From: Erysipelotrichaceae bacterium
GTDB lineage: Bacteria > Bacillota_I > Bacilli_A > RFN20 > CAG-449
NCBI GenBank assembly: GCA_015059095.1
Contig: SVBA01000008.1
Span: 21,533 to 85,532, forward strand
Direction: 5' to 3'
Length of the DNA stretch: 64,000 nt
Shown: piece by piece, positions 1-31,260 of the stretch
Position numbering within the stretch: position 1 is the stretch's first letter
How the letters are laid out: each line of letters begins with the position of its first letter
Program-made: the position numbers and the translations under genes
The notes under the pieces: generated by a model
Told to the model about the DNA's origin: nothing
Seen by the model: the letters and a program-made list of their open reading frames with translations, nothing else
Databases searched by the model: none

Positions 1-3000
1 TACTTCGCCATAAATACAAGTTCTTTCTTTAGAACCTACTTTATCAAATGTTGGTTCTTCTACAGTAGTCCATTCGCCATATGAGTGTTCTTTTAATTCA
101 CCATATTCAGCTTCACAGTGTTCACATACTGCTAATTTAGAACATGTTGATTCTCCACCTGTATGTTCTTTTGCATCAGATTTTGTACCACAACCATTAA
201 CACATAATCTTGAGTGAGTACCATCTTCGTTGTCAACATAAGCACCAGTATAATCATGACCCAATGCTTCTTGTCCTAACTTAGTTTCTTCATGACCACA
301 ACCTTCTAGACTACAAACTCTATGTAATACTTCAGCTTCAGTACAATTTGCTGGAGTTTTTTGACTCCATTCACCATATGTATGATCTGCTAATACACCA
401 TAAGATTCACCACAAACTTCACATTCAGCTTTAACTAAACAAGAAGCGGTTCCACCTTTATGGTTTTCTAATTCTAATTTTTCATCACAACCAGAACATG
501 TTTTCCAGTGAGATGATTCATCAGTTACCCATGTTTCAGAAGGAACATGGACGTGATCTAATTTTGCAATTGTTTCTTCTTTTGCATATTCACAAACTGT
601 ACATTTGAATGTTTTAATACCTGTTTCTTGTTCAGTAGCAGGTTTAGTTATAGTACCTTCATCCCATGTATGACCTTCTCTAGAAGAAACTTCTCCAGAG
701 TGTTCACATGTAGCTGCATGCCAGTGATGAGTTTCATCTTTTGACCATTCAGAAGAATATTTATGTGTATGAGGTAATACGTCACCATATTCTTGACCAC
801 ATTCAGAACATTTTGCTTTTTCTTCTTCAGTAGCAGTACCACCTTTATGAATTTCTTTTTGTGTTTTTTCTTCACAACCTTCTGCTTCACATTCATACCA
901 GTGACCTTCTGCATCATAATTTAATTTTGTTAATTTGTGACCAAGAGCAGAATTTTCAATTTCTTTAGTTTCTTCATGACCACAACCATCAATTGTACAT
1001 TTTCTAACTTGAACTTCGTTATTAATACAATCAGCTGGAGTTAATACTTCCCATTCACCATAAGTATGGTCAGTTTTTGAATCTAGGCTTTCTCTAGTAA
1101 TTGTTTCACCACAAATAGAACAAACCGCTGTTTCAGTTGCATTTTCTTGACATGTTCCATCGTTATTAGAAACAAATTCACCATATCTATGATTTAATAC
1201 TGGAGAAGCTGCATCAATAGCAACATTATAAACTCTAATATCATCATAATATGTATTAGCACCAGGATGTCCTGTACCATAGTTAGCACCAAATCCAATT
1301 GAGAATGATGGATCGATGTAAACATTCTTTTCTTCTGTTAATTCATAAACAACTGTTCCTAATAAGACTGTAAAGTCACCATTAGCATCTTGTTTATATT
1401 GAGTAATTGTTAAAGTTAATCCACTCTTTACAACTCTAATTTCAGACCATTCTAAGTCTGTCATTGAATTTGTAGGCATTCTCTTAGTAGATTGACCTAA
1501 GTTAATTCTTAATTGTCTATTTCCAGCATTTGATTTTTCAAAACCGATACTAAAGAATGGAGTTAGACAATCTTTTCCAGGTTTAGATTTTGCACCTTCA
1601 CCCCATTTTGCATCATAAATATCTGATACACTTAAACCGAATAAGTATGTTTCACTACTTGAATGACCACTACCATCAGGCTTAACTTTTACTGAAATAG
1701 TAAAGTCACCGTTATTAGAATCAACACCAGTTAATCTTAAATGATTACCAGGAGTTAATGCATTATTTACTGCGTTATGATTAATTTTAACTGTTCCATC
1801 AACATAAGGAACGTTTTCATTATTAACTGTAAAATCAGTAACTTTATTAGTAGAGTCAGTATAGAATCCACCATGATTTAATACAGCATTTGAATCTAAA
1901 CCTGTATTTTCCATTGAAGAATTGTCAAAATTATATTCAACGATAGGATTTACTACTGAAACAGTAGTTTCTGCTGTAACTGCTTCATAATCTACTTCGC
2001 CTAAAACGTTAGTAACTGTTGCAGTTAATTTTGCTTCTTTAGAAGTAACATCATTTGCTAAAGACATACCGATAACATACCATTTACCTTCTTCTTTAAC
2101 AACTTTTAATACTTTTTCATCATCTGAAGCCCATTCAACTCTATAGTTTTCAGCACCTTCAGTAACAATAGTAACTTTTAATTCGACTTTTTGTCCTTTT
2201 AATACATTAGAAGGAACTTCATCAAGTTCAACTTCTTGTACTTTAACTAGTTGTGGGATTTCTTCAGTTTCGACTTCGCCACATTCACATTTTCTTTCTT
2301 TAGAACCTGCTTGATCAAATGTTGGTTCAACTACAACCCAATCACCATAAGCATGTTCTGCTAATTCACCATAAGCTTCGCCACAAGTTGTACATACAGC
2401 TTTTTCTGTACAAGTTGCAGTACCACCTGTATGACCTAAAGCTGGGTCACCTTCTCTAGTTTCTTCGTGATTACAGTTTGGAGTGGTACATACTCTATGT
2501 TCTACTTCAGCATTTTCACAATCTGCTGGAGTCTTAGTTTCCCATTCACCATAAGCGTGGTCTGCTAATTCACCATATTCAGCTTCACAGTGTTCACATT
2601 TTGCTAATGCTTGACATGTTGCTTCTCCACCACTATGATTTTCTGTTCCAGAAGTTGTTCCACAACCATTAACACATAATCTTGAGTGAGTACCATCTTT
2701 ATTATCAACATATGCACCAACATATGAATGACCTAAAGCAGGGTCGCCTTCTCTAGTTTCTTCAAAACCACATTTTGGGTTTGAACATACTCTATGTTCT
2801 ACTTCAGCATTTTCACAATCTGCTGGTGTTTTAGTTTCCCATTCACCAAATACGTGTGTATGATCTTTTAATTCACCATAAGGTTGATTACATCCTTCAC
2901 AAACTGCTTTTTCTTCTTCAGTTGCAACACCACCAAAGTGAGCAACTTTTTCAGTTTCTTCATCGCAACCATCTCTATCACATGATGTCCAGTGATGAGT

Positions 3001-3885
3001 TTCATCAAATTTAGTTGTCATTTCATGACCTAAAGCTGCATCACCTTCTCTAGTTTCTTCATGATTACAGTTTGGAATAGTACATACTCTATGTTCTACT
3101 TCAGCATTTTCACAATCTGCTTCTGTCTTAGTTTCCCATTCGCCATAAGCGTGTTCAGCTAAATCACCATAAGGTTGATTACATTCTTCACAAACTGCTT
3201 TTTCTAGACATGTTGCTTCTCCTCCTGAGTGAGGAATTTTTTCTGTTGCTTCTTTACAACCTTCATTGTCACATTCACTCCAGTGATGAGTATTATCATA
3301 CTTATCAACCATATTATGACCTAAAGCTGCATCACCTTCTCTAGTTTCTTCTTTGTCACAATCAGGCATAGAACAAATTCTATATTCTACTTCTTTTTCT
3401 AGACATGTTGCTGGAGTTTTTGTCATCCAATCACTCCAAGTATGGCCTAATTCTTCGCCTGCAGTAAATGTTTCTGTACCTGCTTGTCCACAAGCACATG
3501 ATTTGTAGTAGACTGCTTTATTTTCACAGTCTGCTGGTGATACTAAATATTTAGCATCAACTTTTGAAACTGTATAAGCATGTTCATGTTCTTTTAGTGA
3601 TCCATATGATGCACCACACACTTCACATTTTGCTTGTTCAGTTTCAGTTGCAACACCACCAGTATGTTCTGCTTTAGAATCTACTTCATTACATGAAGAA
3701 TCTTCACAAGCATGCCAGTGGTATTCTTCATCTTTTTCCCATTCAGAACCCCAATTATGGGTATGAACAGGTTCAGAAGATGAAGAAGGAGGATTTGACG
3801 AGCTTGAACTATTAATGTTACAAGCTGCTAACATACCTACTGCACATAAGGCTAATAAATATGTTAATATCTTTTTTCCTTTCAT
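1..3885 (-). CDS. Giant Cys/His-rich tandem-repeat surface lipoprotein, 3' end beyond window. Architecture: lipoprotein signal peptide, ~6 Cys-rich ~45-aa repeats, Big_2-like Ig domain, LamG/concanavalin-like domain, then more Cys-rich repeats.
   Basis: ATG at 3885 preceded by AAGGGG. N-terminus MKGKKILTYLLALCAVGMLAAC has a lipobox. The frame stays open to position 1 (no complete ORF in the track, so it runs off the edge). Repeats of type H-x-Y-G-E-W-x-TKTPADCENAEVEHRVC-x-PNC-x-HEETREGD-ALGH. Central module is highly similar to the Big_2+LamG module of the next gene. Nucleotide-level repeats, e.g. 70-160 vs 2555-2640. Confidence 0.7.
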   Translation of the reverse strand, partial: MKGKKILTYLLALCAVGMLAACNINSSSSSNPPSSSSEPVHTHNWGSEWEKDEEYHWHACEDSSCNEVDSKAEHTGGVATETEQAKCEVCGASYGSLKEHEHAYTVSKVDAKYLVSPADCENKAVYYKSCACGQAGTETFTAGEELGHTWSDWMTKTPATCLEKEVEYRICSMPDCDKEETREGDAALGHNMVDKYDNTHHWSECDNEGCKEATEKIPHSGGEATCLEKAVCEECNQPYGDLAEHAYGEWETKTEADCENAEVEHRVCTIPNCNHEETREGDAALGHEMTTKFDETHHWTSCDRDGCDEETEKVAHFGGVATEEEKAVCEGCNQPYGELKDHTHVFGEWETKTPADCENAEVEHRVCSNPKCGFEETREGDPALGHSYVGAYVDNKDGTHSRLCVNGCGTTSGTENHSGGEATCQALAKCEHCEAEYGELADHAYGEWETKTPADCENAEVEHRVCTTPNCNHEETREGDPALGHTGGTATCTEKAVCTTCGEAYGELAEHAYGDWVVVEPTFDQAGSKERKCECGEVETEEIPQLVKVQEVELDEVPSNVLKGQKVELKVTIVTEGAENYRVEWASDDEKVLKVVKEEGKWYVIGMSLANDVTSKEAKLTATVTNVLGEVDYEAVTAETTVSVVNPIVEYNFDNSSMENTGLDSNAVLNHGGFYTDSTNKVTDFTVNNENVPYVDGTVKINHNAVNNALTPGNHLRLTGVDSNNGDFTISVKVKPDGSGHSSSETYLFGLSVSDIYDAKWGEGAKSKPGKDCLTPFFSIGFEKSNAGNRQLRINLGQSTKRMPTNSMTDLEWSEIRVVKSGLTLTITQYKQDANGDFTVLLGTVVYELTEEKNVYIDPSFSIGFGANYGTGHPGANTYYDDIRVYNVAIDAASPVLNHRYGEFVSNNDGTCQENATETAVCSICGETITRESLDSKTDHTYGEWEVLTPADCINNEVQVRKCTIDGCGHEETKEIENSALGHKLTKLNYDAEGHWYECEAEGCEEKTQKEIHKGGTATEEEKAKCSECGQEYGDVLPHTHKYSSEWSKDETHHWHAATCEHSGEVSSREGHTWDEGTITKPATEQETGIKTFKCTVCEYAKEETIAKLDHVHVPSETWVTDESSHWKTCSGCDEKLELENHKGGTASCLVKAECEVCGESYGVLADHTYGEWSQKTPANCTEAEVLHRVCSLEGCGHEETKLGQEALGHDYTGAYVDNEDGTHSRLCVNGCGTKSDAKEHTGGESTCSKLAVCEHCEAEYGELKEHSYGEWTTVEEPTFDKVGSKERTCIYGEV

Positions 3886-3977
3886 ATTTTCCCCTTTCTT
3901 TTTTATATTCAGCGGATTCCCGTTTCTTAATTATCACTACTTTTATAGAATTGAAAATCCGCTTAATACCTTTTTAT

Positions 3978-6900
3978 CTATTTGATTGCAAAGTCATAAA
4001 TTCTAATATCATCGTAATAAGTGTAATTATTTGGAGCACCATTTTGACATCCACTATTACCTGTGAATGCTAAATTACAACTTGATGTAAAGTTAATTGC
4101 TTCTGCACTAGATAAAGTAATTTCATATCCGGTTGTTAATCCACTATCTACTTCTGTAATTGCAAATTTGACATTATTACCATTTCTAACTATCATGACA
4201 TCAATCCATTCTCCATATGGAAGATATACATAGCTGTTTTCAGAATTCTTTTCATTTAATTTTGAATCAATAACAAATCTTATACGGTTTTGTCCTTCTA
4301 CAAGTTTATATGAAACATTGAAATATGGAGCTTTAACGTCTTTTACATTACCATTAGCATCAGTAGGATTACCAATACCTAATAAGTAACATGATGAATT
4401 AGAGTTAGTAACTAAACCAGAAATATTCATTCTAGCCATAATAGTGAAATCATTTGTTCCTAAGTCAATTCCATTAATTGTAAAGTGGTTTCCACCTTCT
4501 TTCTTTTGATCTAATTTAATAGCATTATTTTCTAAATCATTAGAATCTTTTCCATATACTATAGAAGCAGTAGAATCAACAACATTAGTACCCGACATTG
4601 TTGTAACCTTACCAGTAACAGTTTGATTAGTACCTGTATTAGCAATTGTTCCATTATTGAATGTGTATTCAACAATTGGATTAATTACTGTAATTTCAAA
4701 TGAATCAGTTACAGATTCATATTCTGTTTCACCTAATACATTAGTCACTTTTACAGTTAATGTTGCTTTATCACTGGTAACACTATTTGCAAGTGTTTTT
4801 GAAACAGCATAGTATTTTCCATCTTGATAAACTACTTCAATTACAGCTTCATCACTAGAAGTCCATTCGACTTTATAACTAGTTTTGCCTTCAACTAAGA
4901 TATCAACTTTTAATTCAGTTGAACTTTCTTCGATTACTTTTTCAATTGTATTAGAAATTTCGATTTCTTCAACTTTAGTTAATTTTTCAAGAGTTTCAGT
5001 TTCTACATGATTACAATCATAACATCCTCTACTTCTTTCGCCTGCTTGATCAAAAGTCGGATAAGAAACATATTCCCAATCTTTATAATCGTGACCTGCG
5101 TAAATTGTAATATTTTCAAGAGTTGTCTCTACTTTTTCTTCTGTAAAATATTTCTTACATTCACTACATTGATAATGCGCTAAATTACCAGTATCTACAC
5201 AGTTAGTTGGAACTTTTGCTTCAATTAATGTTCCATAATTATGTGCAACTATTGAATTAGGAATTTCTTTAATAATTTTAGAATTACAAATAGTGCAAGT
5301 TGCTGATTGAGTAGCATTGGTTACACAAGTTGCATTATTGTCATCAACATATTCACCATAAGTATGCTTAATTAATGCGCCTTCTTTATCAATAGCAAAG
5401 TCATATACTTGAATATCATCATAGTAAGTGTAATTATTAGGAGCACCATTTTGACATCCACTATTACCTGTGAATCCTAAGTTACAATTAGATGTAAAGT
5501 TAATTGTTTCCGCATTAGGTAGAACAATTTCATAACCACTAGAAGTACCACTATCAACTTCAGTAATAACTAATGAAACGTTATTTCCTGATCTAATAAC
5601 CATTACTTCAATCCATTCTCCATATGGAAGATATACTAGACTTCCTTCTGAATTCTTTTCATTAACCTTAGAATTGATAACAAATCTAACTCTATTCTTT
5701 TCACCGTCTAATTTATAAGAAATATTGAAATATGGAGCTTTAACGTCCTTTACATTACCAAGTTCATCAGTTGGATTACCAATACCTAATAAGTAACATG
5801 ATGAATTAGAGTTAGTAACTGCTCCAGAAATATTCATTCTAGCCATGATAGTAAAATCATTAGTTCCTAAGTCAATTCCATTAATTGTAAAGTGATTTCC
5901 GCCTTCTTTCTTTTGGCCTAATTTAATTGAGTTATTATCTAAATCATTAGAATCTTTTCCATATTCTATAGAAGCAGAAGAATCAATAACATTAGTACCC
6001 GACATTGTTGTAACCTTACCAGTAACAGTTTGATTAGTACCTGTATTAACAATTTTTGCATCATTGAAATTGTATTCAACAATTGGATTAATAACACTTA
6101 CTTCCATAGAATCATCATATGACTCATATTCAACTTCACCTAATACGTTAGTTACAGTTGCAGTTAAAGTAGTTTTTAAACTAGTTACTGAACTATCAAT
6201 GTGTTGAGCAACAGCATAATATTTACCATTTTTATAAACAACTTTAATAATATTTTCATTATTAGAAATCCATTTAACATCGTAGTTATCAGCACCTTCA
6301 GTTAGAATATCTACCTTTAATTCGATTTCTTGACCTTCGATAATTTTATTTGCACTAGTAGAAATTTCAAATTCTTCTACTTTAATTAATTTTGGAAGGA
6401 CTTCATCTTCTCTAGCAGTACAAGAGCAAACTCTATATCTTGAACCCTCCTCATCAAATGTTGGTTCAGTAGTTACCCATTCACCATAAGTGTGTTGATA
6501 TCCCTTATTTATTTCTTCATAAGGAACTTCAACTTTTTCTTCTGTAAAATAATGTTTGCAACTACTACATTGATAATGTGCTAAAACTTCTTCAACAGTA
6601 CAACTACCTTCTACAAAAGGAATTAGTTCACCATAAATATGTTCTAATTTAGTTCCTTTTATATCACGAGTATTTGTTGCATCACAATCATCACATTTAG
6701 CAGTTTCTGTACAATTAGATGAACAAGTTGGATTATTATTAGAAACATACTTTGTAAATGAGTGAGATTCTTTTGAATCAGGAATTTCTCGAGTATTTAT
6801 TGCATCACAATAATCACATATTGCAGTTTCTGTTTCATTTGAAGTACAAGTTGCATCATTATTGCTTTCATACTTTGTAAACGTATGTTCAATTTTTGAA

Positions 6901-7280
6901 TCTTTAATTACTCTAGTATCTGTTTTATTACAGCCATCACAAATTGCAGTTTCTGTACCATTTTTTGTACAAGTTGCATCATTATTACTAACATAATTAG
7001 TAAATGAGTGGGTTTGATGAGGATTAACATACTCTTTTGTTTCAGAATATCCACATTCACAAACTCTTTCCTCTAAAGTTTTATCATCATTTACTTTCCA
7101 AGAAGAAAATTCATGAGCACTTTCATTAAATCTTTCATCACATTCAAAGCATTCTCTCCAGTGATTTGTTTCATCATAATGATATCCACCCGTCAAAGAA
7201 TGATTATGAGAACAACCTGCAATAACTATTAATCCAACAGGTAATGCCAAACTTAATAATATTTTTTTAATAAGTTTCAT
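3978..7280 (-). CDS. Cys-rich repeat surface lipoprotein, paralog of the upstream gene. Architecture: lipobox, short Cys-rich ~37-aa repeats, then two near-identical copies of a [Cys-rich linker, Big_2, LamG-like] module.
   Basis: RBS AAAGGAG then ATG. MKLIKKILLSLALPVGLIVIAGC lipoprotein signal. Repeats H-x-FTKY-x-SNNDATC-x-NGTETAIC-D-x-C. Big_2-like stretch (VEEIEIS...KVDIL...YKVEWTSSDEAVIEVV...ATLTVKVTN). LamG-like stretch (NHFTINGIDLGTNDFTIMARMNISG...LPYGEWIEVMVIRSGNNV) occurs twice. Confidence 0.8.
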   Translation of the reverse strand: MKLIKKILLSLALPVGLIVIAGCSHNHSLTGGYHYDETNHWRECFECDERFNESAHEFSSWKVNDDKTLEERVCECGYSETKEYVNPHQTHSFTNYVSNNDATCTKNGTETAICDGCNKTDTRVIKDSKIEHTFTKYESNNDATCTSNETETAICDYCDAINTREIPDSKESHSFTKYVSNNNPTCSSNCTETAKCDDCDATNTRDIKGTKLEHIYGELIPFVEGSCTVEEVLAHYQCSSCKHYFTEEKVEVPYEEINKGYQHTYGEWVTTEPTFDEEGSRYRVCSCTAREDEVLPKLIKVEEFEISTSANKIIEGQEIELKVDILTEGADNYDVKWISNNENIIKVVYKNGKYYAVAQHIDSSVTSLKTTLTATVTNVLGEVEYESYDDSMEVSVINPIVEYNFNDAKIVNTGTNQTVTGKVTTMSGTNVIDSSASIEYGKDSNDLDNNSIKLGQKKEGGNHFTINGIDLGTNDFTIMARMNISGAVTNSNSSCYLLGIGNPTDELGNVKDVKAPYFNISYKLDGEKNRVRFVINSKVNEKNSEGSLVYLPYGEWIEVMVIRSGNNVSLVITEVDSGTSSGYEIVLPNAETINFTSNCNLGFTGNSGCQNGAPNNYTYYDDIQVYDFAIDKEGALIKHTYGEYVDDNNATCVTNATQSATCTICNSKIIKEIPNSIVAHNYGTLIEAKVPTNCVDTGNLAHYQCSECKKYFTEEKVETTLENITIYAGHDYKDWEYVSYPTFDQAGERSRGCYDCNHVETETLEKLTKVEEIEISNTIEKVIEESSTELKVDILVEGKTSYKVEWTSSDEAVIEVVYQDGKYYAVSKTLANSVTSDKATLTVKVTNVLGETEYESVTDSFEITVINPIVEYTFNNGTIANTGTNQTVTGKVTTMSGTNVVDSTASIVYGKDSNDLENNAIKLDQKKEGGNHFTINGIDLGTNDFTIMARMNISGLVTNSNSSCYLLGIGNPTDANGNVKDVKAPYFNVSYKLVEGQNRIRFVIDSKLNEKNSENSYVYLPYGEWIDVMIVRNGNNVKFAITEVDSGLTTGYEITLSSAEAINFTSSCNLAFTGNSGCQNGAPNNYTYYDDIRIYDFAIK

Positions 7281-7371: not shown

Positions 7372-10300
7372 TTAAATCTTATTATTATAGATTAATTCAA
7401 TTCCCTTTGAATCAATCGCTCCATCATATACTGCGATATTATCATAAGCAATCTTACCTGGATGATAAGACCAAGATTCACCAACGTATGCTCCAAAGTT
7501 CAATACATTACTTGTAAAGTTAGTATCTTCAGCAATAGTTAATGATGTAATTACTCGACCATCAACATATAAATGAACTCTATCTTTTTGACGTACTAAC
7601 ACAACATTATGCCATTCACCATAGCTCATATTTGGATCAATTACTTTAGTAGCAATATCACTATCAGAAGTTCTAATATTGTAATAGAATTTTCCATCAG
7701 CTTCTTGTCTTACTGTAACTCTAAATCCATCATTACAATCATCAACATTACTTGTACCAAAGATATATGAACTATTTCCTGAAGAAAGAGTAGAACCTAC
7801 AGGAACATTGATCCAAGTCGAGATTGTAAAGTCATTAGTACCGAAATTAAATCCATTAATATTTGTATAAGCACCTACACTATTTTGAGTTAAAATAGCA
7901 CCATTTTCATCTCCATCAATGCCTTGAGTATATTTGATAACGTCTTCATCTAAGAAATATAATCCACTAATTTTAACTGGTTTAACAATTACTTGATCAT
8001 TTGATCCTGAATTAGTAATATTTCCATTTAAGAAATCGACATAGACATCCGCTCTATCCTTATTTAGCAATACAACTTCAAATTTATATGTATTATTATC
8101 TTCAGCAACTACTTCAATTTCTTGATTGATAACTTCATTAATCGAAGCTTCTGGCACTTTTAATTGATAATAGCCTTCTGACTTTTTAACGAAATAATTG
8201 CTGTGAGATTTTATCTCTTTAATTCCATAGTCATTATTTTGATCATCTTTACAAATTAAATCAGCAACATAATTTCCATCAATTATTTGAGCATCAGTTA
8301 AATAAATATCTTCAACTGATACACTATTTGTAACATATCCTTTTTCATCAAATGTAACAAATTTACTTCTATCATGAGTATAGTAATTACTTACACCTGT
8401 TTGATTATGATATTGAGAAGTAACTAATGTATTTTTATCTTTATAATAAGAAACACATGGTAAGATATATAATTCTTCTGGAGCCTTTTCTAAACCAAAT
8501 GTACTATATGGAATGAAAATCTCCACTTGATAGCCATCACTAGTTAAATTAGTATCAGCAATAATATCTAATTTATAATCACCAGTTCTTTCAAGCCATG
8601 CCCAACCATCGCTTGCAGGAGTTTGGTAGATATAAGTTTTTGATGTATTTGAATGCGGATAACATCTAATTTGATATGTATTTCCAACCGCAATTTCTTT
8701 TCCTAATGTGAATATAGTTTCAACATGAGTTTTATTTCTAATAATTGCATCCTTAACATCGTATCCAACAAAAATACCCTTTTCACCAAAATAAGTAGAT
8801 ACTTCTTGTGAAATAATATTTTCTGATACATTAGTTAAAGTTTTATATGAACGGCCATATTTCTCATCATTTGGATTACCATCTACACAAATTTCAGAGA
8901 AATATGCTCTTGATTTTTCTTTTTTACCATTACAAATAGTATCAAACTCGATACCATCTTTAAATTTTTCAATTTCCTCTTTCTTGACTTTTGCTCTGAA
9001 CTTACCATTATTTATATTTTCAATAATCAAGTTTTCAGGAGTTTCAAAAGTAGGATTTACTAAATATTTATCAGAAGATGATTTTTCATTTAAAGTAACA
9101 AACGAAGCTTCAACTTCAAATTCATATTCATAATAACCAGTTTCTTGATTTAGCATATTAGATGTAAAGAATACATTTGGAGTATCCATTTTTCTTAATA
9201 CTGCTCCATCATTTTCCATAAAGATATAGTGTTCTTGAGGATTAGTTTGTCCTGCAACATTGGCATTAGTTACATTACAATAATCCCATGGTGCAGCTTT
9301 TTGAGATTGACTTTCGTTTTCCGCATGAATTACATTAGGTAAAACCATAACTCCATCTAATTTTGTATTTGATCCAAAACTAGTCCAAGGAATAAATATC
9401 TCAATAGTGTATCCTTCATTTTTATTACTATTTAATCCACCCAATCCATTATTATCTTGAATTGTAGTTCCTGTTAGCATATCAAATTGATCAAATGACC
9501 ATGGATATGATTCTCCAATAACACCAGAATAACCTACCTTCACATTATTAGCAGTAATTCTTAGTTGAAGACATTCTGGAGTAATCTCTGTCACTCCATA
9601 AGGTGCAAACAAGATTTCCATTCCACTATTTAAACCAATTGGTCTAACTGTTTCATCAGCATAATAAACATAGTTATCTTTAACAACAAATCCAAAATAT
9701 GCTCCTTTATCAGTCATATAAGAACTTGCTGATAATTTGACTTCTTTACCAAATGCTGTTTTATAAACAAAGTTAGCATCTTGAACTTCTGCCCAAATTG
9801 GTTCATCTAACTTACCATCAATGCTCATTGTTTCATCTTCGACAACTAAATCATTGATAATATCATCATATTGAACCATTCCTTGATTTGAAACGATTTT
9901 CCAAGTATTTGGTTTTGTTAATAAACTTCCTTGAGTACCCGCCCAAATTCTATCACCATCTAGAGATGCACTTTCAACGTGGTTAAATGCCGTATAAGTT
10001 CTAATATACTTATGATTTTCTACTCCTAATACATCCCAAGGAACAAACGCTTCACATACATAGCCTTCGCAAGAACTAGTATTCATGTTTCCTTTTACAT
10101 AAGAAGCTCCTTCCCAAGTAAATGGGGAAGTCATCCATTGCATTTTTCCTAAACCATTCAAATTAAGTCTCCAAGAAGAATCCTTATAATCAACTTTTAC
10201 TCCATCACCAGTAGGAATAATTCTAATACAATGCGCTTTGGTATCTAAATTACCAAAACCCTTAAAATGAACTTCTACTGATGTGTTTCTTGAAGGTCTT

Positions 10301-10638
10301 CTTTCTTCGTTATAATAAACTGCATAATCATCAACTATAACTCCAAAATATACACCTTTTTCTCCTATATAACACATTGATTCTAATTTAACATCCGGAG
10401 AAGCAGAGTTAACTACAGTGTATGAATTCTTTTTTGCAATCATCCACTCTTTTTCATCTAAAACCCCATCAATATCCATTCCTTCATCTTTATCTAAATT
10501 AACTTTTTGGTTATTTTGATTTTCTGGAATTGAATATTCTGGAAATTTGAATCCCTCAACAACTTTTGAACATGAAGATAAAGTAGCTAAAGCAGAAAGG
10601 ATAACTAAAATTTTTGATAGTTTTGATTTTTTCTTCAT
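7372..10638 (-). CDS. Surface lipoprotein with four CBM9-like (DOMON-type) carbohydrate-binding modules and a C-terminal LamG-like domain
   Basis: RBS AAAGGAG. N-terminus MKKKSKLSKILVILSALATLSSC has a lipobox. Repeated I/VDG-x-LDE-x-W ... YFGVIVDD ... RPSRNTSVEVHF-type CBM9 signatures. C-terminal NGFNFGTNDFTISTWINV...YGEWHNVVLVRQKDRVHLYVDG is LamG-like. Confidence 0.7.
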   Translation of the reverse strand: MKKKSKLSKILVILSALATLSSCSKVVEGFKFPEYSIPENQNNQKVNLDKDEGMDIDGVLDEKEWMIAKKNSYTVVNSASPDVKLESMCYIGEKGVYFGVIVDDYAVYYNEERRPSRNTSVEVHFKGFGNLDTKAHCIRIIPTGDGVKVDYKDSSWRLNLNGLGKMQWMTSPFTWEGASYVKGNMNTSSCEGYVCEAFVPWDVLGVENHKYIRTYTAFNHVESASLDGDRIWAGTQGSLLTKPNTWKIVSNQGMVQYDDIINDLVVEDETMSIDGKLDEPIWAEVQDANFVYKTAFGKEVKLSASSYMTDKGAYFGFVVKDNYVYYADETVRPIGLNSGMEILFAPYGVTEITPECLQLRITANNVKVGYSGVIGESYPWSFDQFDMLTGTTIQDNNGLGGLNSNKNEGYTIEIFIPWTSFGSNTKLDGVMVLPNVIHAENESQSQKAAPWDYCNVTNANVAGQTNPQEHYIFMENDGAVLRKMDTPNVFFTSNMLNQETGYYEYEFEVEASFVTLNEKSSSDKYLVNPTFETPENLIIENINNGKFRAKVKKEEIEKFKDGIEFDTICNGKKEKSRAYFSEICVDGNPNDEKYGRSYKTLTNVSENIISQEVSTYFGEKGIFVGYDVKDAIIRNKTHVETIFTLGKEIAVGNTYQIRCYPHSNTSKTYIYQTPASDGWAWLERTGDYKLDIIADTNLTSDGYQVEIFIPYSTFGLEKAPEELYILPCVSYYKDKNTLVTSQYHNQTGVSNYYTHDRSKFVTFDEKGYVTNSVSVEDIYLTDAQIIDGNYVADLICKDDQNNDYGIKEIKSHSNYFVKKSEGYYQLKVPEASINEVINQEIEVVAEDNNTYKFEVVLLNKDRADVYVDFLNGNITNSGSNDQVIVKPVKISGLYFLDEDVIKYTQGIDGDENGAILTQNSVGAYTNINGFNFGTNDFTISTWINVPVGSTLSSGNSSYIFGTSNVDDCNDGFRVTVRQEADGKFYYNIRTSDSDIATKVIDPNMSYGEWHNVVLVRQKDRVHLYVDGRVITSLTIAEDTNFTSNVLNFGAYVGESWSYHPGKIAYDNIAVYDGAIDSKGIELIYNNKI

Positions 10639-10641
10639 AAA

Positions 10642-12393
10642 CTAAATCTCCTTTCCTAATAACACTATTTCATTAATAGCAACTTTTTCTTGTCCTTTTG
10701 GACATTTAATTGTAATTGTTATCTTATTAATTTCTAATTCATCAAATTCAAATACCATTGGTGCTCCTGGTCTCATATATAGTGTACTAGTAGCATATGG
10801 TCTACCTTCATTAGAATGTGCACCAAAGTCATATTCAGCATTTTTAATTTGTGCTGTACCTACACAAGGATTTCCTTCAATCTTTTCTCTAAAAGAAAAA
10901 TTAATGCTTGAAATTTGTCTAAATGCAGAATAATAATCTGAACTATTATAAATAAGTAATGATTTTGCAGTTACAAAATTGTCAAAATCAATTGTTACTT
11001 TAATATCTTTAGTTGATTCATATTCGCCTACTTGGTCGTAACTTCTTAATTTAATTAATCCATCACTAATTAATTCACTATTATTAGAATTATTTATTGT
11101 GACTTTAGCCTTTGAAATTAAGTTTTCATATTTCAAAGAAGAATAAACTTTTGGTTGGATAGAAGTTGTTGGACCATTACAGTGTAATATTGTTTGACCT
11201 AAATCATTTTCAACAAATGCTACTCTATCGATAGCAATTCCTCTTTCAAATTGTCCTACACCAGTATAACCTTCACTTAAACGGTTTTTATCTTGGTGAT
11301 AAACAACCCACATATCTTCTCCATCGTTCACAAAACTATGGCTACCTGTACATAAAACATGGTCCCAAGCTTGTGCGCCAAATTCATTCATTTCAACACC
11401 TAGAACAACTCCACCATTTGATTCTTGAACTTTAGTGAAAGGACCTAATGGACTATCACCTAAAGCTTGCATAACTGAGTATTCTGGATCTGAAGTAGCA
11501 CATACTGAGAAAGTTAAATAATATTTACCGTCATGATAAATCATATTAGGTGCTTCATTAATTTGGTTTTCACTACCAGCACCTTCAAATCTTTCAGTAT
11601 ATTCACTTCCTCCAACAGTAGTTTTATTTACTTCTGTTAATTCAACATAAGTACTATAATCTGGAGTCATCCAGTCAATCATTTTAACCCCAGCAATAAC
11701 GTTAGATGGATGAACATTTCTTGTTCTACTCATATATAAATATTTATCTCCTGTTTCAGGATCAATAAATGGAAATGCATCAATATGGCTACTTCCTTTT
11801 TTATAGTACTTGTAGTTTTCGTCGTTTGGATCTAGTAATTCAATATCAAATAAAGGAGTTCCTACATCCATTTCCGTTCCGTTTTTATTAGTACCAACAA
11901 ATGATTTAAATGGACCAGCTGGACTATCAGAATATGCCATACCTAAATATTTTGTTTTAACATATCCATCTTCTTGATTACTATTTGTTGCACTATAGAA
12001 CAAATAATATTTACCATCTTCCTTATCATAGATACATGAAGGTGCCCATAAATCTGATACACCCCACGAACCTGCTGGAGGATTAAAACAAACAGATAAT
12101 GATTCCCAATTTGCTAAATCTTTACTTCTGTAAACGTTAACAGCTTCACTCTTAGCTAAGTACATCATGAAATAGCCTTTATGTTCACCTTCATCAATGT
12201 AAATAACTGTAGGGTCTGCTCCTTCAAAATCTAAATCATTACGATAATATAAATCTGTATTATACCCTTGAACAATATCTTCATTATCGTAATAAGGCAA
12301 ATCAACATTTCCCACAGTATAATAAGAATAACATCCAGATAAACATAATGCAGATGCTAATAATAGGAATAAACTTTTTATTTTATTTTTCAT
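10642..12393 (-). CDS. GH43-family glycoside hydrolase (xylosidase/arabinanase type) lipoprotein with C-terminal beta-sandwich domain
   Basis: Likely start is the second ATG (12393) after AAAGGAGG. MKNKIKSLFLLLASALCLSGC lipobox. GH43 motifs GADPTV..., DLWAPSCIY, and a 5-bladed propeller-like pattern. Confidence 0.8.
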   Translation of the reverse strand: MKNKIKSLFLLLASALCLSGCYSYYTVGNVDLPYYDNEDIVQGYNTDLYYRNDLDFEGADPTVIYIDEGEHKGYFMMYLAKSEAVNVYRSKDLANWESLSVCFNPPAGSWGVSDLWAPSCIYDKEDGKYYLFYSATNSNQEDGYVKTKYLGMAYSDSPAGPFKSFVGTNKNGTEMDVGTPLFDIELLDPNDENYKYYKKGSSHIDAFPFIDPETGDKYLYMSRTRNVHPSNVIAGVKMIDWMTPDYSTYVELTEVNKTTVGGSEYTERFEGAGSENQINEAPNMIYHDGKYYLTFSVCATSDPEYSVMQALGDSPLGPFTKVQESNGGVVLGVEMNEFGAQAWDHVLCTGSHSFVNDGEDMWVVYHQDKNRLSEGYTGVGQFERGIAIDRVAFVENDLGQTILHCNGPTTSIQPKVYSSLKYENLISKAKVTINNSNNSELISDGLIKLRSYDQVGEYESTKDIKVTIDFDNFVTAKSLLIYNSSDYYSAFRQISSINFSFREKIEGNPCVGTAQIKNAEYDFGAHSNEGRPYATSTLYMRPGAPMVFEFDELEINKITITIKCPKGQEKVAINEIVLLGKEI

Positions 12394-12410
12394 AAACATT
12401 TCCTCCTTTA

Positions 12411-13295
12411 TTACATCTTAATTCCTGTTGTTGCTATACCATCAATAAAGTACTTTTGTCCAAATAAGAATAAAATTAATGTAGGTAACAATGATACTGT
12501 TGCACCTGCCATAACGACAGCCCAGTCAGTAGTATAAGTTCCTCTAAAGAAATTTAATGCAATTTGTAAAGTATAATTTTCTGGTGATTGCAAATAAATT
12601 AATGGTCCTAAATATGCATTATATGTACCAACAAATGACAACAAGAATTGTGCTATTAATGCTGGACCAGAAAGTGGTAAGATTACTCTAACGAAAATTC
12701 CAAAGTTTCCTAAACCATCCATTTCAGAACATTCCATTAATTCATTTGGAATTGAATAGAAGAATTGTCTCATAAAGAATACACAAGATGCACTACCTAA
12801 CATCGCAGGTACCATTAATGGAAGGAAAGAGTCTACCCAACCAATTGAGTCAAATAAGATATAGGAAGGAATCATTGATATTGTTCCTGGAATCATCATA
12901 GTTACTAACAAAGTAGTAAATAAGAAATTTTTACTTTTATATTTAAGTTTTGAAAATGCAAATGCTGCTAAAGCTGATACAAGTGTTCCTATAATTGAAG
13001 TAGGAATACAAATAATCATTGAGTTAATAAACCCTCTAACTACAGTTGGCATTGTATCTGATGTACCAGAAGTATAAGTAAATACTTCAATATAACCGTG
13101 TAAATCAAATTCCTTTGGCCAGAATGTGAAAGAAGGATCCATTGCTTCTGCTTTTGTTTTAAACGATGTAATTAATACAACATATAGTGGAGCTAATACA
13201 CATAAAGCAACAAAAGTTAAAACAACGTAAATTCCAATTTTGGATAAAGTTTTCTTTAAATTAGCCATTCTAATCTTTTTAGTCTTCTTAGTCAT
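12411..13295 (-). CDS. Carbohydrate ABC transporter permease (LplC/MalG-like)
   Basis: Six-TM permease with a BPD_transp_1-type EAA-like loop. Overlaps the upstream permease by 8 nt. Confidence 0.85.
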   Translation of the reverse strand: MTKKTKKIRMANLKKTLSKIGIYVVLTFVALCVLAPLYVVLITSFKTKAEAMDPSFTFWPKEFDLHGYIEVFTYTSGTSDTMPTVVRGFINSMIICIPTSIIGTLVSALAAFAFSKLKYKSKNFLFTTLLVTMMIPGTISMIPSYILFDSIGWVDSFLPLMVPAMLGSASCVFFMRQFFYSIPNELMECSEMDGLGNFGIFVRVILPLSGPALIAQFLLSFVGTYNAYLGPLIYLQSPENYTLQIALNFFRGTYTTDWAVVMAGATVSLLPTLILFLFGQKYFIDGIATTGIKM

Positions 13296-14217
13296 AATTC
13301 ACCCACTTCTTGCTTAAAGCAAAGTTTAATATTGTAATTAAAATAATCATTATAGATAAGATCCATGCTACAGCAGATGCTGTACCCATATTTGAATATG
13401 TAAATGCTTCTCTATATAAATAGAAAACCATTGTTATACCTGTAGAGTTAGGTCCACCTAGTCGATCCCAAACTTGTGATCTAGTAAATTCTTGTAATAC
13501 ATCAATTAATCCTGTAACAAACAAATAGAAAATTGTTGGAGAAATTGCAGGTAATGTTACATTAATTACTTTTTCAAATGCATTTGCTCCATCCAATGAA
13601 GCTGCTTCATATAAATTCTTATTTACTGAAGTTAATGCTGCTGTTAGAATAATGATTTTATACCCTGTTGTACTCCATACAGTCATACAGATTAAACCAA
13701 ATCTATACCACTTAGAATCACCTTTCCAATTTATTCTTGTACCAGTTAGCCATTCAATAACGTTATTAGCAACTCCATATTTGTGATCTAAAATAACATT
13801 CCACATCAAAGTAACTGCTACTAAAGAACAAATAAATGGAATAAAGTATACTGTTCTATAGAATGGTTTACCTTTAATCTCTTTAGTTAATAAAATTGAA
13901 ACTAATAGTGCAATAATCATTGATATTGGCCATGACAATGCTAGATAGAAAGTATTACCAATTGATTTCCAGAAGATAGGATCTGTTAATACTTCCTTAA
14001 AGTTATTGAGTGTGAAGCCTTGTTGCATCGCACTAATAACATCAAAATTAAATTTCATTGGTAGAAATGCCATTAATAGACCAACAACTAATGGAATAAA
14101 ACCAAAAATTGCAAATCTTAATACTGGAAAGCAACTAAATACGAAGCCTTGAATATTATTTAGTTTTTTCATTTTCTTTTTACTGTAAGTTTTTCTTACA
14201 ATATTTGCTTGAGTCAT
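13288..14217 (-). CDS. Carbohydrate ABC transporter permease (LplB/MalF-like, with N-terminal extension)
   Basis: RBS AAAGGAGG. Polytopic membrane protein with a permease signature. Followed directly by the partner permease. Confidence 0.85.
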   Translation of the reverse strand: MTQANIVRKTYSKKKMKKLNNIQGFVFSCFPVLRFAIFGFIPLVVGLLMAFLPMKFNFDVISAMQQGFTLNNFKEVLTDPIFWKSIGNTFYLALSWPISMIIALLVSILLTKEIKGKPFYRTVYFIPFICSLVAVTLMWNVILDHKYGVANNVIEWLTGTRINWKGDSKWYRFGLICMTVWSTTGYKIIILTAALTSVNKNLYEAASLDGANAFEKVINVTLPAISPTIFYLFVTGLIDVLQEFTRSQVWDRLGGPNSTGITMVFYLYREAFTYSNMGTASAVAWILSIMIILITILNFALSKKWVNYD

Positions 14218-14237: not shown

Positions 14238-14264
14238 AAAAACCCTTTCTTTAAATTGAAAGGG
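14238..14264 (-). terminator. Intercistronic hairpin with U-run between the SBP and permease genes (partial terminator / differential expression element)
   Basis: Minus-strand CCCTTTC-AATTTAAA-GAAAGGG followed by TTTTTG, 9 nt after the SBP stop. Confidence 0.5.
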
Positions 14265-16042: not shown

Positions 16043-16358
16043 ATTTACCACCTTTAACCATGTAAACGGTTTCTTTCTATATTTGCATTATATTATTAAA
16101 ATATAATATAGTAAACGTCGAATATTACCCAATAAGTGTAAAATATTCTCATAGATAAAAAATAATTATTTTTTTCGAAAATTTCGGATAAAAGAATAAT
16201 ATTATATATTATAAAGTATTATTTTTAAAAAAAATTGGTTATTTTTACCAAAATTATTTTTCTGAAAAAAGAAAAAAATTCTCAATTTATGAATTATTAT
16301 TCTTTTTTTATTTGTATTATTTTCTCTGAATGTTTAAAATGATTTTAGGAGGTGCTAT

Positions 16359-17198
16359 ATGTATATCAATTCCAATAATGAAAATATTATTTACAATTCC
16401 ATTGATAAAAACGACTTCCTTTCTATTTCAATGGCAGGTATCACTAATCCAAATCCTAATTACCACATCATTCATAATATCAACAAAAATTTCTTCTATG
16501 ATTACTATGTTTTCGAATATGTAATTAGTGGTAAAGGATACATTGAATATGAAAATAATAAAATAATTGAAGTTAACACTGGTGACTTTTATTTTCTAAA
16601 TAAGCTTTGTAAACACATATATTATTCTGATAGACGCAATCCATTTAAAAAAATATTTATCGTTGTTAAAGGTCACTTCATTGATTCACTTATTAACGCT
16701 TTTGATATTAATGAATCAGTGATAGTTACTAAAGCAAATGTTGAACCAATTATCTTAAATATTCATAGTGAGTTAACAAAAGAAGAAATTAATTACCAAA
16801 ATATATCCCATGATATATTGAATCTATTTTACTCTTTTAATAGAAACTTATATGAAGATAAAACAAACGCAATGAAATTGCCTGATTTAATTAGAAAATA
16901 CTTAGATACTTCCTTAACTCAAAAATTAACTCTTGAAAGAATAAGTGAAGAATTGAACGTTAGTAAATCACACATCGAAAGAGTCTTTAAAGAAAGATTT
17001 AATACAACTCCACTTAATTACTTTATGAAGCAAAAAATTAAATATGCGTGTGCATTATTAGTTAACACTTCTTATTCAATCAATGTTATTGCAGAACAAA
17101 CAGGTTTTACTGATTCTAAATATATGGCTAAATGCATAAAAAAAGAAACAGGTATGACCCCGCTTCAATATAGAAAATATAAAACCAATACTTATTAA
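16359..17198 (+). CDS. AraC/XylS-family transcriptional regulator (cupin N-domain + dual HTH), divergent from the glycan operon
   Basis: RBS GGAGGTG. C-terminal LTLERISEELNVSKSHIERVFKERFNTTPLNYFMKQKIKYACALL...TGFTDSKYMAKCIKKETGMTPLQYRK matches the AraC HTH signature. Confidence 0.85.
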   Translation: MYINSNNENIIYNSIDKNDFLSISMAGITNPNPNYHIIHNINKNFFYDYYVFEYVISGKGYIEYENNKIIEVNTGDFYFLNKLCKHIYYSDRRNPFKKIFIVVKGHFIDSLINAFDINESVIVTKANVEPIILNIHSELTKEEINYQNISHDILNLFYSFNRNLYEDKTNAMKLPDLIRKYLDTSLTQKLTLERISEELNVSKSHIERVFKERFNTTPLNYFMKQKIKYACALLVNTSYSINVIAEQTGFTDSKYMAKCIKKETGMTPLQYRKYKTNTY

Positions 17199-18125: not shown

Positions 18126-18178
18126 ATGTTCTCCTTTCAAAAATATCCGACTTTTTAGCATTAAACAAGTATTTACTA

Positions 18179-19225: not shown

Positions 19226-19228
19226 ATA

Positions 19229-25703: not shown

Positions 25704-25789
25704 AATAAGAATCTCCTTTTTATCTCATTATTAATATGATATTCATTTTTTTATATAAGTAAAGATATTTTAACTAAAAGTTAAAAAAG

Positions 25790-25826
25790 TATACATAATA
25801 AAAGCACATTAGAGTAATAATGTGCT
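25790..25826 (-). terminator. Rho-independent terminator after addA
   Basis: Minus-strand AGCACATTA-TTACTC-TAATGTGCT followed by a T-rich tract. Confidence 0.5.
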
Positions 25827-25831
25827 AATAA

Positions 25832-28948: not shown

Positions 28949-28949
28949 T

Positions 28950-31223: not shown

Positions 31224-31260
31224 AACCACCTAAATAAAAACGATAGTCTTCACTATCGTT

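Follow-up and report, generated by a model that had tools for sequence, protein, structure and literature searches.

The closest described relatives of the repeats reported here lie in the M64 IgA protease (IgAse) of Thomasclavelia ramosa (UniProt Q9AES2, PDB 9qa6), in which ZBD1 and ZBD2, also designated CTD2 and CTD4, were interpreted as rod-like stalk domains with putative structural zinc (PMC12237041, PMC12415215). Their fold was termed uncharacterised, was supported by AlphaFold models and SAXS only, and carried its putative metal sites at the subdomain interfaces of the predicted models (PMC12237041, PMC12415215). CTD2 was a fully extended rod by SAXS and was named a "metal-associated periscope domain" (PMC12415215; for periscope proteins, Whelan 2022, as cited in PMC12415215). 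Two further comparisons are more distant. The G5-E repeats of SasG and Aap have no sequence relationship to the units described below, and in Aap Zn bridges two protomers via His, Asp and Glu, whereas four Cys/His ligands per site are predicted here within one chain. SusE and SusF, from the PULs of Bacteroidota, are lipid-anchored, apparently non-catalytic multi-domain proteins whose genes lie beside a glycan importer and enzymes.

We analysed a 64,000-nt window from the genome of an uncultured gut bacterium of the Erysipelotrichaceae (GCA_015059095.1, contig SVBA01000008.1, positions 21,533 to 85,532), at one end of which lie two genes, termed A and B (Table 1). Both had been proposed in the initial annotation as paralogous lipoprotein genes at 1-3885 and 3978-7280; both ORFs were found there on the minus strand, and their products are indeed paralogous, with Ig-LamG cassettes that are 47% identical over one 481-residue alignment. 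NCBI names the products "hypothetical protein" (MBE6143152, gene A) and "LamG domain-containing protein" (MBE6143153, gene B). Full-length A comprises 2533 aa (L001:13396-20997). Each protein begins with a signal peptide and a lipobox of the form [LVI][ASTVI][GAS]C (LAAC22 in A, IAGC23 in B), read directly from the sequence rather than called by a predictor; lipobox-type ends read in the same way occur in the 1088-aa protein (LSSC), GH43 protein (LSGC) and SBP (FAGC) encoded upstream. The repeats had been described as interleaved with other domains, but it is whole arrays that alternate with Ig plus LamG cassettes.

Table 1. Positions of the features of genes A and B and of the neighbouring genes in the window
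Feature	Position	Strand	Description	Basis
Gene A	1..3885	minus	N-terminal 1295 aa of a 2533-aa lipoprotein; C-terminus beyond window	translation
A signal peptide and lipobox	3820..3885	minus	MKGKKILTYLLALCAVGMLAAC22	direct sequence reading
A Ser/Pro-rich linker	3772-3819	minus	directly after lipobox segment	
A array 1	2245..3765	minus	residues 41-547, 15 Cys/His units	unit HMMs, composition, TRF, AF2
A Ig-like beta-sandwich	1945..2244	minus	residues 548-647	alignment with B cassettes
A divergent ConA-like/LamG module	1207..1944	minus	residues 648-893	alignment with B cassette
A array 2	1..1191	minus	residues 899-1295, 12 units, last cut by window edge	unit HMMs
Gene B	3978..7280	minus	1100-aa lipoprotein	
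B signal peptide and lipobox	7212..7280	minus	…GLIVIAGC23	direct sequence reading
B array 1	6384..7208	minus	residues 25-299, 7 units (alpha, epsilon', gamma x4, epsilon)	unit HMMs, TRF
B cassette 1	5385..6383	minus	Ig-like (residues 300-399), ConA-like/LamG (residues 400-632)	
B array 2	4974..5366	minus	residues 639-769, 3 units (gamma, long gamma, epsilon)	unit HMMs
B cassette 2	3981..4973	minus	Ig-like (residues 770-867), LamG (residues 868-1100)	Pfam, alignment
Upstream 1088-aa lipoprotein	7372..10638	minus	…ATLSSC; C-terminal LamG 31% identical to B's	
GH43 lipoprotein	10642-12399	minus		Pfam, N-terminus
Two ABC permeases	12411-14217	minus		Pfam
SBP lipoprotein	14273-16051	minus		Pfam, N-terminus
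AraC-family regulator	16359..17198	plus	divergent	Pfam HTH_18/AraC_binding

The arrays are strongly biased in composition, with 6-7.5% Cys and 4-6% His compared with 1.17% and 1.6% in the 42 other ORFs of the window. Unit HMMs counted 27 units in the part of A within the window (~32 in the full protein) and 10 in B, so that the "dozens" of repeats claimed for each protein hold for A and not for B. The two example motifs quoted in the initial annotation were located at A 443-485 and B 91-158, while its uniform repeat of ~37-45 aa with 3-4 Cys gave way to some five subtypes, 26-50 aa long, with 2-3 Cys apiece and a His at every unit boundary. The shortest, the beta unit, has 26 aa and the pattern GGxAT[C/E]x5CxxC. 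In array 1 of A the order of units is alpha, beta, delta, gamma, alpha, beta, gamma, alpha, beta, gamma, alpha', beta, gamma, beta, epsilon. At the DNA level, TRF detected two periods: 297 bp (x3.3) at 2430-3393 in gene A, the length of a 99-aa tri-unit, and 123 bp (x2.7) at 6667-7004 in gene B, the length of a 41-aa unit. Strictly defined periscope genes have near-identical DNA repeats and vary in length among strains; the TRF matches here were only 73% and 77%, and the full-length cluster members, a small sample, were all 2533 aa and 1100 aa with no length variants of either protein.

Precedent for the repeats emerged from a profile search only. Single-sequence phmmer searches of PDB sequences with A, B, the C-terminal half of A and the 1088-aa protein returned nothing useful, and a keyword search of the literature found nothing relevant on the repeats. 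A profile built from 49 tri-units (A1), searched against 177,635 PDB sequences, gave a sole match, 9qa6_A "IgA protease" (E 6.9e-10), whose matched stretches 861-972 and 1071-1139 are ZBD1 and ZBD2; the 2025 papers were reached only via this match. BLASTP against the IgAse ZBDs gave 36-37% identity (37% over 65 aa at E 4e-9) with a shared order of units, and A 1041-1103 is 37% identical to ZBD1. These sequence comparisons show homology between the Cys/His repeats and ZBD1/ZBD2 (CTD2/CTD4) of the T. ramosa protease. The long gamma, alpha and epsilon unit types and the His/Cys ligand pattern are common to both systems, both are extracellular and surface-anchored, zinc is putative in both, the role proposed for the ZBDs is likewise that of a rigid metal-stabilised stalk, and T. 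ramosa also belongs to the order Erysipelotrichales. The IgAse, however, has 3+2 units beside a sortase anchor and carries a protease, whereas A has 27 units (~32 at full length) and B has 10, next to an N-terminal lipid anchor; A and B further differ in an additional beta unit of 26 aa, an additional delta unit, arrays that alternate with Ig-LamG cassettes, and a place in a glycan-utilisation operon.

The initial annotation could not assign the repeats to a named family. Pfam and NCBIfam, searched with whole proteins and unit by unit (E<=10), indeed hold no family for them, although the IgAse ZBDs now provide a precedent. Gamma, alpha-beta, tri-unit, delta and epsilon units matched none of the classical zinc-ribbon/zinc-finger Pfam families (E<=0.05), and whole-protein matches to HNH_5 and zf-DBF were under the Pfam cut-offs. 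No database lists the unit family, whose first description, in one IgA protease, dates from 2025. Among 1.84 billion representatives, the A1 profile nevertheless detected 26,956 protein clusters (defined at 50% identity) at E<=1e-3, with arrays of up to ~60 matched stretches and with cohesin, dockerin, SLH, Flg_new, LRR/LRR_5 and CBM26 modules as fusion partners. Family size and diversity of partners speak against the tie between repeat and glycan loci that had been suggested, and the unit is most likely a general-purpose stalk or spacer rather than the glycan-capturing part. Relatives of protein A itself, found in MAGs of Oscillospiraceae, Christensenellaceae and Clostridia with the source species absent, were only 25-31% identical.

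Conservation of the Cys residues in homologues had been set beforehand as a check, and the Cys proved invariant: the homologue alignment has invariant columns C14, C24, C29, H43, H54, C58, C85 and C88, and position 72 exchanges His and Cys. Covariation at such positions follows a simple rule. Among 582 distinct beta-unit instances, 508 of the 514 with Cys79 had one boundary His only, while 61 of the 68 lacking Cys79 had an extra His within three residues, mostly as HxH (Fisher p 2.6e-67 for the compensation, the instances not being phylogenetically independent). Gamma and epsilon units also showed compensation: a single His followed the top Cys in 491/542, and of the 84 units lacking the top Cys, 60 either closed their array (48) or preceded a doubled His (12), giving p 2e-33 from counts that again are not phylogenetically independent. 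These ligand counts fit four-ligand sites at unit interfaces and the compensation crosses unit boundaries, which supports a model in which four-ligand metal sites bridge consecutive units. Each unit (26-50 aa) would be a small up-down-up beta-meander flanked at start and end by a boundary His. Its first turn would supply a "top" ligand, which is Cys in gamma, His in alpha and Cys in most beta units, and its base a C-x(1-4)-C knuckle. Units would then be joined end to end by tetrahedral sites to which unit n contributes its top ligand and unit n+1 its knuckle, together with the boundary His, as 3Cys+1His or 2Cys+2His ligand sets. All 38 Cys of A 41-547 (38/38) fit this scheme across the 15 units. 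Only one His opens the arrays that follow a LamG module (H899 in A, H639 in B), and under the model the first site of these arrays is one ligand short.

Two intra-unit schemes, in which a unit starts or ends with His, were rejected because the AF2 strand layout puts the top ligand and boundary His opposite the unit's own CxxC knuckle, and because the top Cys is also missing from epsilon units at array ends. For the inter-unit geometry we rely on strand topology, covariation and the interface placement in the two IgAse papers; the bound metal would most likely be zinc. Ligand conservation and Cys/His covariation lend support to the metal stabilisation that the initial annotation had raised as a possibility, and its overall observation is confirmed with the corrections given here, its interpretation in part. 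The ligand-swap rule, either a top Cys or a second boundary His, amounts to a concrete, testable metal-site model that might also inform mutagenesis and structural studies of the IgA protease.

AF2 predicted the tri-unit as all-beta (pLDDT 95.8), with DSSP strands at 7-10, 19-24, 32-36, 45-49 and 53-58 plus short bridges. The model contains small three-stranded up-and-down antiparallel sheets as in the IgAse subdomains, the third strand of the beta unit being inferred, and has no match among solved folds. Scaling the published value (~110 Å for 129 aa) would give rods of ~43 nm for the first array of A and ~23 nm for that of B. The units probably form long, rigid zinc-stapled rods, which would carry the Ig and ConA-like/LamG cassettes across and past the cell wall, starting from the membrane anchor, and most likely hold these lectin-like modules away from the cell.

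Of the Big_2 and LamG modules initially assigned to both proteins, Big_2 fell short (20.7 bits against a Pfam cut-off of 22.8, at B 770-835) and LamG held for B, in which Laminin_G_3 scored 34.7 bits (cut-off 27.6) and a beta-jelly-roll fold was also found. The Ig-like domain of B is all-beta in AF2 (pLDDT ~80-90), and B 770-867 is accordingly described, from its model, as Ig-like and not as a certified Big_2 domain. Pfam found neither Laminin_G_3 nor a match of any other kind for the LamG module in the window cassette of A; in alignment A2, this cassette (residues 511-897) and that of B share 37% identity, and the equivalent Ig domain of A's second cassette gave weak aBig_2/I-set matches. The two B cassettes are 72% identical to each other. 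The cassettes have a ConA-like fold, as in the ConA-like lectin/glucanase superfamily (Pfam Laminin_G_3; for example AbnA domain 4, PDB 5hon), of which no solved member exceeds ~15% sequence identity to them. At this identity, conservation of ligand sites cannot be transferred, and a homologue search with the Ig+LamG cassette of B retrieved 2 proteins only, too few for a transfer of function.

Upstream of B and A, on the same strand, lie in order the SBP, two permeases, GH43 and the 1088-aa lipoprotein. This agrees with what had been reported, except that the 1088-aa protein, previously called a CBM9 protein, matches Laminin_G_3 only; the locus encodes three LamG lipoproteins. The gaps between the 1088-aa gene and B and between B and A are 91-92 nt, each with a good ribosome-binding site, and on the minus strand from 10638 to 1 no terminator-like site was found other than a hairpin at 10259-10235, which lies inside the coding sequence of the 1088-aa gene and has no T-run. 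We infer that A and B are co-transcribed with the transporter genes. SASA and AP_endonuc_2 genes lie downstream, and GH43, CE15 and GH43 genes in the neighbouring region. This gene content supports a hemicellulose-type utilisation locus beside an ABC importer, with arabinoxylan or arabinan probably the substrate. The locus of the best named relative, P0005, has the order AraC, Big_2, GH3, unknown, P0005, SASA, unknown, SASA. Like SusE and SusF, then, A and B are apparently non-catalytic lipoproteins encoded beside an importer and enzymes, but they are unrelated in sequence and fold, belong to a monoderm cell, sit beside an SBP-dependent ABC system rather than SusCD, and have a long stalk; no SusE/F family was among the Pfam matches of the scanned genes of this Erysipelotrichaceae host, and the comparison is a functional analogy only.

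Taken together, we read A and B as surface lipoproteins whose zinc-stapled stalks project lectin-like modules in a Gram-positive hemicellulose/polysaccharide-utilisation locus, with a probability of roughly 0.6. Glycan binding by the LamG cassettes, and a specificity for hemicellulose chains, is plausible; the bound chains would putatively stay close to the GH43 lipoprotein, the importer's SBP and the secreted SASA esterase. Catalytic cassettes of a PL7, PL20, GH16 or GH131 type (lyase or glycosidase) would instead make A and B stalk-mounted enzymes, which we consider unlikely. Similarly improbable is a function for the arrays themselves, as adhesive or ligand-binding elements or in metal-dependent cell-cell self-association like the Zn "zipper" of Aap/SasG. 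With four protein ligands, each predicted site would be fully coordinated, leaving no open position for bridging (the same point is made in PMC12415215); moreover, the unit is joined to many unrelated "head" domains, as expected of a spacer, and the ZBDs are dispensable for catalysis in the IgAse.

Two other views of the arrays carry very little weight. The number of predicted sites (~37 in the window part of A plus B) and their Cys and His ligands might suggest zinc storage or buffering at the surface, or redox chemistry at iron sites. We regard this as highly improbable, as the ligand sets are typical of structural Zn, not of Fe-S or exchangeable sites, the family combines its units with a variety of surface "heads", and the Pfam-scanned genes, which cover part of the window, include no metal transporter or regulator. 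Metal-free, disulfide-knotted modules of EGF/TSR type have an equally slight chance: the Cys number is odd (3) in gamma units and in Cys-type beta units, His is invariant at four positions, compensation between Cys and His is observed, and the named family members are all MAGs of Clostridia, Oscillospiraceae, Christensenellaceae, Bacilli and Erysipelotrichaceae. For the IgAse, in addition, an absence of disulfides and better behaviour with DTT were reported (PMC12237041). The sequence evidence thus supports metal sites, and not disulfide modules, as the nature of the units.

For fibre degradation, A and B suggest a route by which a membrane-anchored lipoprotein could reach substrate beyond the cell wall. 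Extracellular Cys/His zinc sites are rare among textbook bacterial surface proteins; they appear standard for long rods without a hydrophobic core in many gut and rumen Firmicutes. More tentatively, and with the odds somewhat against it, the ZBD-type unit could represent one of the largest unannotated extracellular metal-binding families of anaerobic Firmicutes. Its inter-unit Zn staples would then tie stalk rigidity, and hence the reach of surface enzymes, lectins and cohesins, to zinc supply and a reducing environment, and A and B would be the first proteins to link such a stalk to lipoprotein glycan capture in a Gram-positive PUL. The family is absent from Pfam and NCBIfam and is known from predicted structure only, and some of its members exceed the Pfam cut-offs of the unrelated Zn_ribbon_PaaD and Med16_C families through repeated weak matches, which makes mis-annotation a practical risk.

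In the window, ORF calls placed all genes of the repeat-lipoprotein locus on the minus strand. Two of them encode the paralogues A and B, in which arrays of Cys/His-rich units alternate with cassettes consisting of an Ig-like and a ConA-like/LamG domain. Both N-termini consist of a signal peptide and a lipobox (…MLAAC22 in A; …VIAGC23 in B), as was also found for the upstream 1088-aa protein, a 585-aa GH43 and the SBP; the LamG module is common to A, B and the 1088-aa lipoprotein. The segmentation listed in the table was also recovered by unit HMMs cut from the alignment, which gave no significant match to other ORFs of the window. The arrays contain 6-7.5% Cys and 4-6% His (1.17% and 1.6%, respectively, in the rest of the window), and their DNA repeats with periods of 297 bp, equal to a tri-unit of 99 aa, and 123 bp, equal to one unit of 41 aa, with a match of 73-77%. 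The initial annotation of A and B as paralogous repeat lipoproteins was thus right in substance, except that the "dozens" of repeats claimed for each do not apply to B and that the units are heterogeneous. They comprise γ (H-x12-C-x9-C-x2-4-C…GH), α (H…HW-x2-C-x1-4-C-x8-H), β (H-x-GG-x-AT-[C/E]-x5-C-x2-C-x9-H), ε, which is without the first Cys, and a further subtype, δ.

Coordinates of the features of the locus and its surroundings
Feature	Position	Strand	Description
Gene A	window 1-3885	-	first 1295 residues (translation); remainder beyond window edge
A, first array	residues 41-547		15 units; then Ig, LamG (to 893)
A, second array	residues 899-1295		12 units
A beyond window	L001:13396-20997 (metagenome contig), residues 1296-2533		third Ig-LamG cassette, further Cys/His units
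ORF within A	window 648-917	-	89 aa, other frame
Gene B	window 3978-7280	-	1100 aa
B, first array	residues 25-299		7 units; then Ig-LamG
B, second array	residues 639-769		3 units; then Ig-LamG
LamG lipoprotein	window 7372-10638	-	1088 aa
Terminator-like hairpin	window 14243-14264		right after SBP gene
GH43, CE15, GH43	window 17214-20146	-	beyond AraC regulator; CE15 glucuronoyl esterase (GCE_fung, 4.3e-34)
GH13	window 24084-25703	-	alpha-glucosidase-like enzyme
UvrD-like	window 25832-28948	-	AddAB-type helicase-nuclease pair
PD-(D/E)XK	window 28950-31229	-	AddAB-type helicase-nuclease pair

Exact-match contigs from four metagenomes gave A a full length of 2533 aa. The NCBI copies of A ('hypothetical protein') and B ('LamG domain-containing protein') come from one MAG labelled Erysipelotrichaceae bacterium. 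Beyond the window, further units of A lie near residues 1645, 1685, 1975, 2030 and 2057; a ~230-aa aromatic-rich segment (~1740-1970) is CBM-like by eye, and a Gly/Thr/Asn-rich stretch with a β-helix-like look (~2100-2290) precedes a final LamG-like module. Pfam gave no match for the cassette, CBM-like, β-helix-like or LamG-like parts of residues 1296-2533, and phmmer against the PDB returned chance matches only for this portion. The small ORF within gene A is almost certainly spurious.

A profile of 49 γ-α-β tri-units, when scored against all PDB chain sequences, matched one entry only, 9qa6_A 'IgA protease' (E 6.9e-10; stretches 861-972 and 1071-1139), which is the M64 IgA protease of Thomasclavelia ramosa (order Erysipelotrichales). 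The two stretches correspond to the domains ZBD1 (E879-T1008) and ZBD2 (G1101-T1171) (PMC12237041), regions elsewhere named CTD2 and CTD4 (PMC12415215). BLASTP aligned ZBD1 subdomains II-III with A 1041-1103 (37% identity over 65 residues) and subdomains I-II with A 1987-2051 (36% identity), with matching unit order in both alignments. From AlphaFold3 models and not experimental density, the ZBD was described as an elongated domain of ~110 Å built of three-stranded up-and-down β-sheet subdomains, with 'putative' structural zinc sites (2His+2Cys or 3Cys+1His) at the subdomain interfaces (PMC12237041). Isolated CTD2 was a fully extended rod by SAXS, and CTD2 and CTD4 were proposed to extend the protease outward from the cell (PMC12415215). 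Taken together, we put the probability that the arrays are homologous to these ZBDs and are stalks at about 0.85. Prior knowledge of the repeat amounts to five units in one protein, with putative metal binding. The AF2 model of one tri-unit (A 245-343; 49-row alignment) had a pLDDT of 95.8 and short β-strands only. Foldseek found no match to this model below E = 1, in agreement with the statements in PMC12237041 and PMC12415215 that structural homologues are absent; this result also suggests that no deposited entry includes modelled ZBDs.

Given the ZBD homology, the repeat has a precedent. The initial failure to assign it to a named family was borne out: Pfam and NCBIfam recognized nothing in the arrays, whether whole proteins or single units (E<=10) were scanned. 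A word-seeded search with A 41-546 yielded >3,261 proteins among the matches listed, from at most 8,000 candidates, the named ones all being 'hypothetical'. Partner domains of these homologues (precomputed or rescanned) include cohesin, dockerin, SLH, Flg_new, Big_2 and CBM26, and C-terminal membrane anchors also occur. Such counts under-represent long members, because word-seeded searches returned nothing longer than ~890 aa (paralogue A was missed with a B-cassette query), whereas the exhaustive profile search gave many giants. Against 1.84 billion cluster representatives, the tri-unit profile matched 26,956 proteins at an E threshold of 1e-3, 10,586 at 1e-10 and 1,570 at 1e-30, the largest reaching 7,583 aa and 61 matched stretches. 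Named sources of the family were MAGs of Clostridia, Oscillospiraceae/Ruminococcaceae, Christensenellaceae, Bacilli and Erysipelotrichaceae. In homologues P0167, P0163, P0018 and P0026, the Cys/His units gave many weak matches to unrelated Pfam families, no stretch being significant by itself, and the summed whole-protein scores exceeded the cut-offs (Zn_ribbon_PaaD, 64.4 vs 27 bits; Med16_C, 83.6 vs 21; Phage_TAC_13, 31.6 vs 28.8), which probably misleads automatic annotation of this family. A and B are new, extreme representatives of a domain type first published in 2025 for one enzyme and still absent from family databases. New here are arrays with tens of tandem units, the β and δ types, lipid anchoring at the N-terminus, the combination with LamG cassettes within a glycan locus, the family size and a Cys/His ligand-swap rule.

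In the tri-unit alignment, C14, C24, C29, H43, H54, C58, C85 and C88 are invariant, position 72 holds His (43 rows) or Cys (6), and position 63 holds Cys (44 rows) or Asp/Asn (5). Among 582 distinct β units from 306 proteins, those with Cys at position 79 had a single boundary His in 508 instances and an extra His within 3 residues (mostly HxH) in 6, while those with another residue (mostly Glu) had 7 and 61, respectively (Fisher p 2.6e-67, which overstates independence since the instances are related by descent). Within A, the rule held in 8/8 units. Likewise, among 626 distinct γ/ε units, a top-loop Cys was accompanied by a single His in 491, a doubled His in 27 and no His (array end) in 24; the corresponding numbers where it was absent were 24, 12 and 48 (p 2e-33, with the same overstatement of independence), some of the first 24 being regex false positives or 'C-x-H' variants at the boundary. 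Such exchange is expected of a four-ligand metal site but not of disulfides, and the compensation points to metal sites. The metal is probably zinc.

The AF2 strand layout puts the top ligand, together with the C-terminal boundary His, where each hairpin opens, ~five strand residues from the unit's own CxxC knuckle, and an inter-unit site therefore fits. Each site would join the top ligand of unit n and the boundary His to the knuckle of unit n+1, a proposed geometry that we consider rather likely and that agrees with the published interface location (PMC12237041). This scheme accounts for all 38 Cys in A 41-547, for the loss of the top Cys in terminal ε units and for the HxH with which arrays directly after the lipobox begin (A H41-T-H43; B H25-N-H27). 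It leaves unexplained the single His that starts arrays directly after a LamG module (A H899, window 1195-1191 region; B H639, 5366), where the first site is one (fourth) ligand short; the LamG C-terminus or water may supply the missing ligand.

Of the modules initially annotated as Big_2 and LamG, the former scored below its Pfam cut-off. Laminin_G_3 passed the cut-off in both B and the 1088-aa protein, and the LamG fold is secure. The AF2 model of B 263-640 (ε, Ig and LamG; 5-row alignment) had a pLDDT of 71, with ε and Ig better than LamG. Glycan binding by the cassettes is predicted at even odds, and their activity may instead be catalytic. Three repeats with a 'DG.LDE..W' motif in the 1088-aa lipoprotein had been read as CBM9, a reading that Pfam did not uphold: it reports only the C-terminal Laminin_G_3, and no family for the N-terminal 850 aa.

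To reach polymeric substrate, a lipid-anchored protein of a monoderm cell has to extend across the wall. Extrapolation from the published 129 aa per ~110 Å gave rod lengths of ~43 and ~34 nm for the first and second arrays of A, and ~23 and ~11 nm for those of B. The arrays could act as Zn-stapled rigid spacers that would present successive Ig-LamG cassettes at growing distance from the membrane, and the cassettes would hold hemicellulose close to the GH43 lipoprotein, SASA esterase and SBP. As a whole, this proposal of Zn-stapled spacers presenting glycan-binding cassettes is somewhat favored.

Read along the minus strand, the genes begin with the SBP and the two permeases, continue with the GH43 lipoprotein and the 1088-aa LamG lipoprotein, and end in the window with B and then A. 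On the metagenome contigs, genes for an AP_endonuc_2 protein and a secreted esterase of the SASA family come after A, and the gene for an AraC regulator diverges from this series. The locus resembles a Gram-positive PUL directed at arabinoxylan or arabinan. We infer co-transcription; the gaps on both sides of B measure 91-92 nt and carry strong ribosome-binding sites, and the minus strand below 10638 has no terminator-like site save an in-gene hairpin lacking a T-run. The hairpin ahead of the permease genes could be an intra-operon attenuator raising SBP relative to the permeases. The GH43/CE15/GH43 cluster, whose products are without signal peptides, suggests that imported glucurono-arabinoxylan oligosaccharides are processed in the cytoplasm. 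Among homologues, the P0005 locus holds GH3 and SASA genes and P0108 lies among housekeeping genes, so the repeat as such is not restricted to glycan loci. The GH13 gene and the AddAB-type pair (24084-31229) are unrelated to the arrays.
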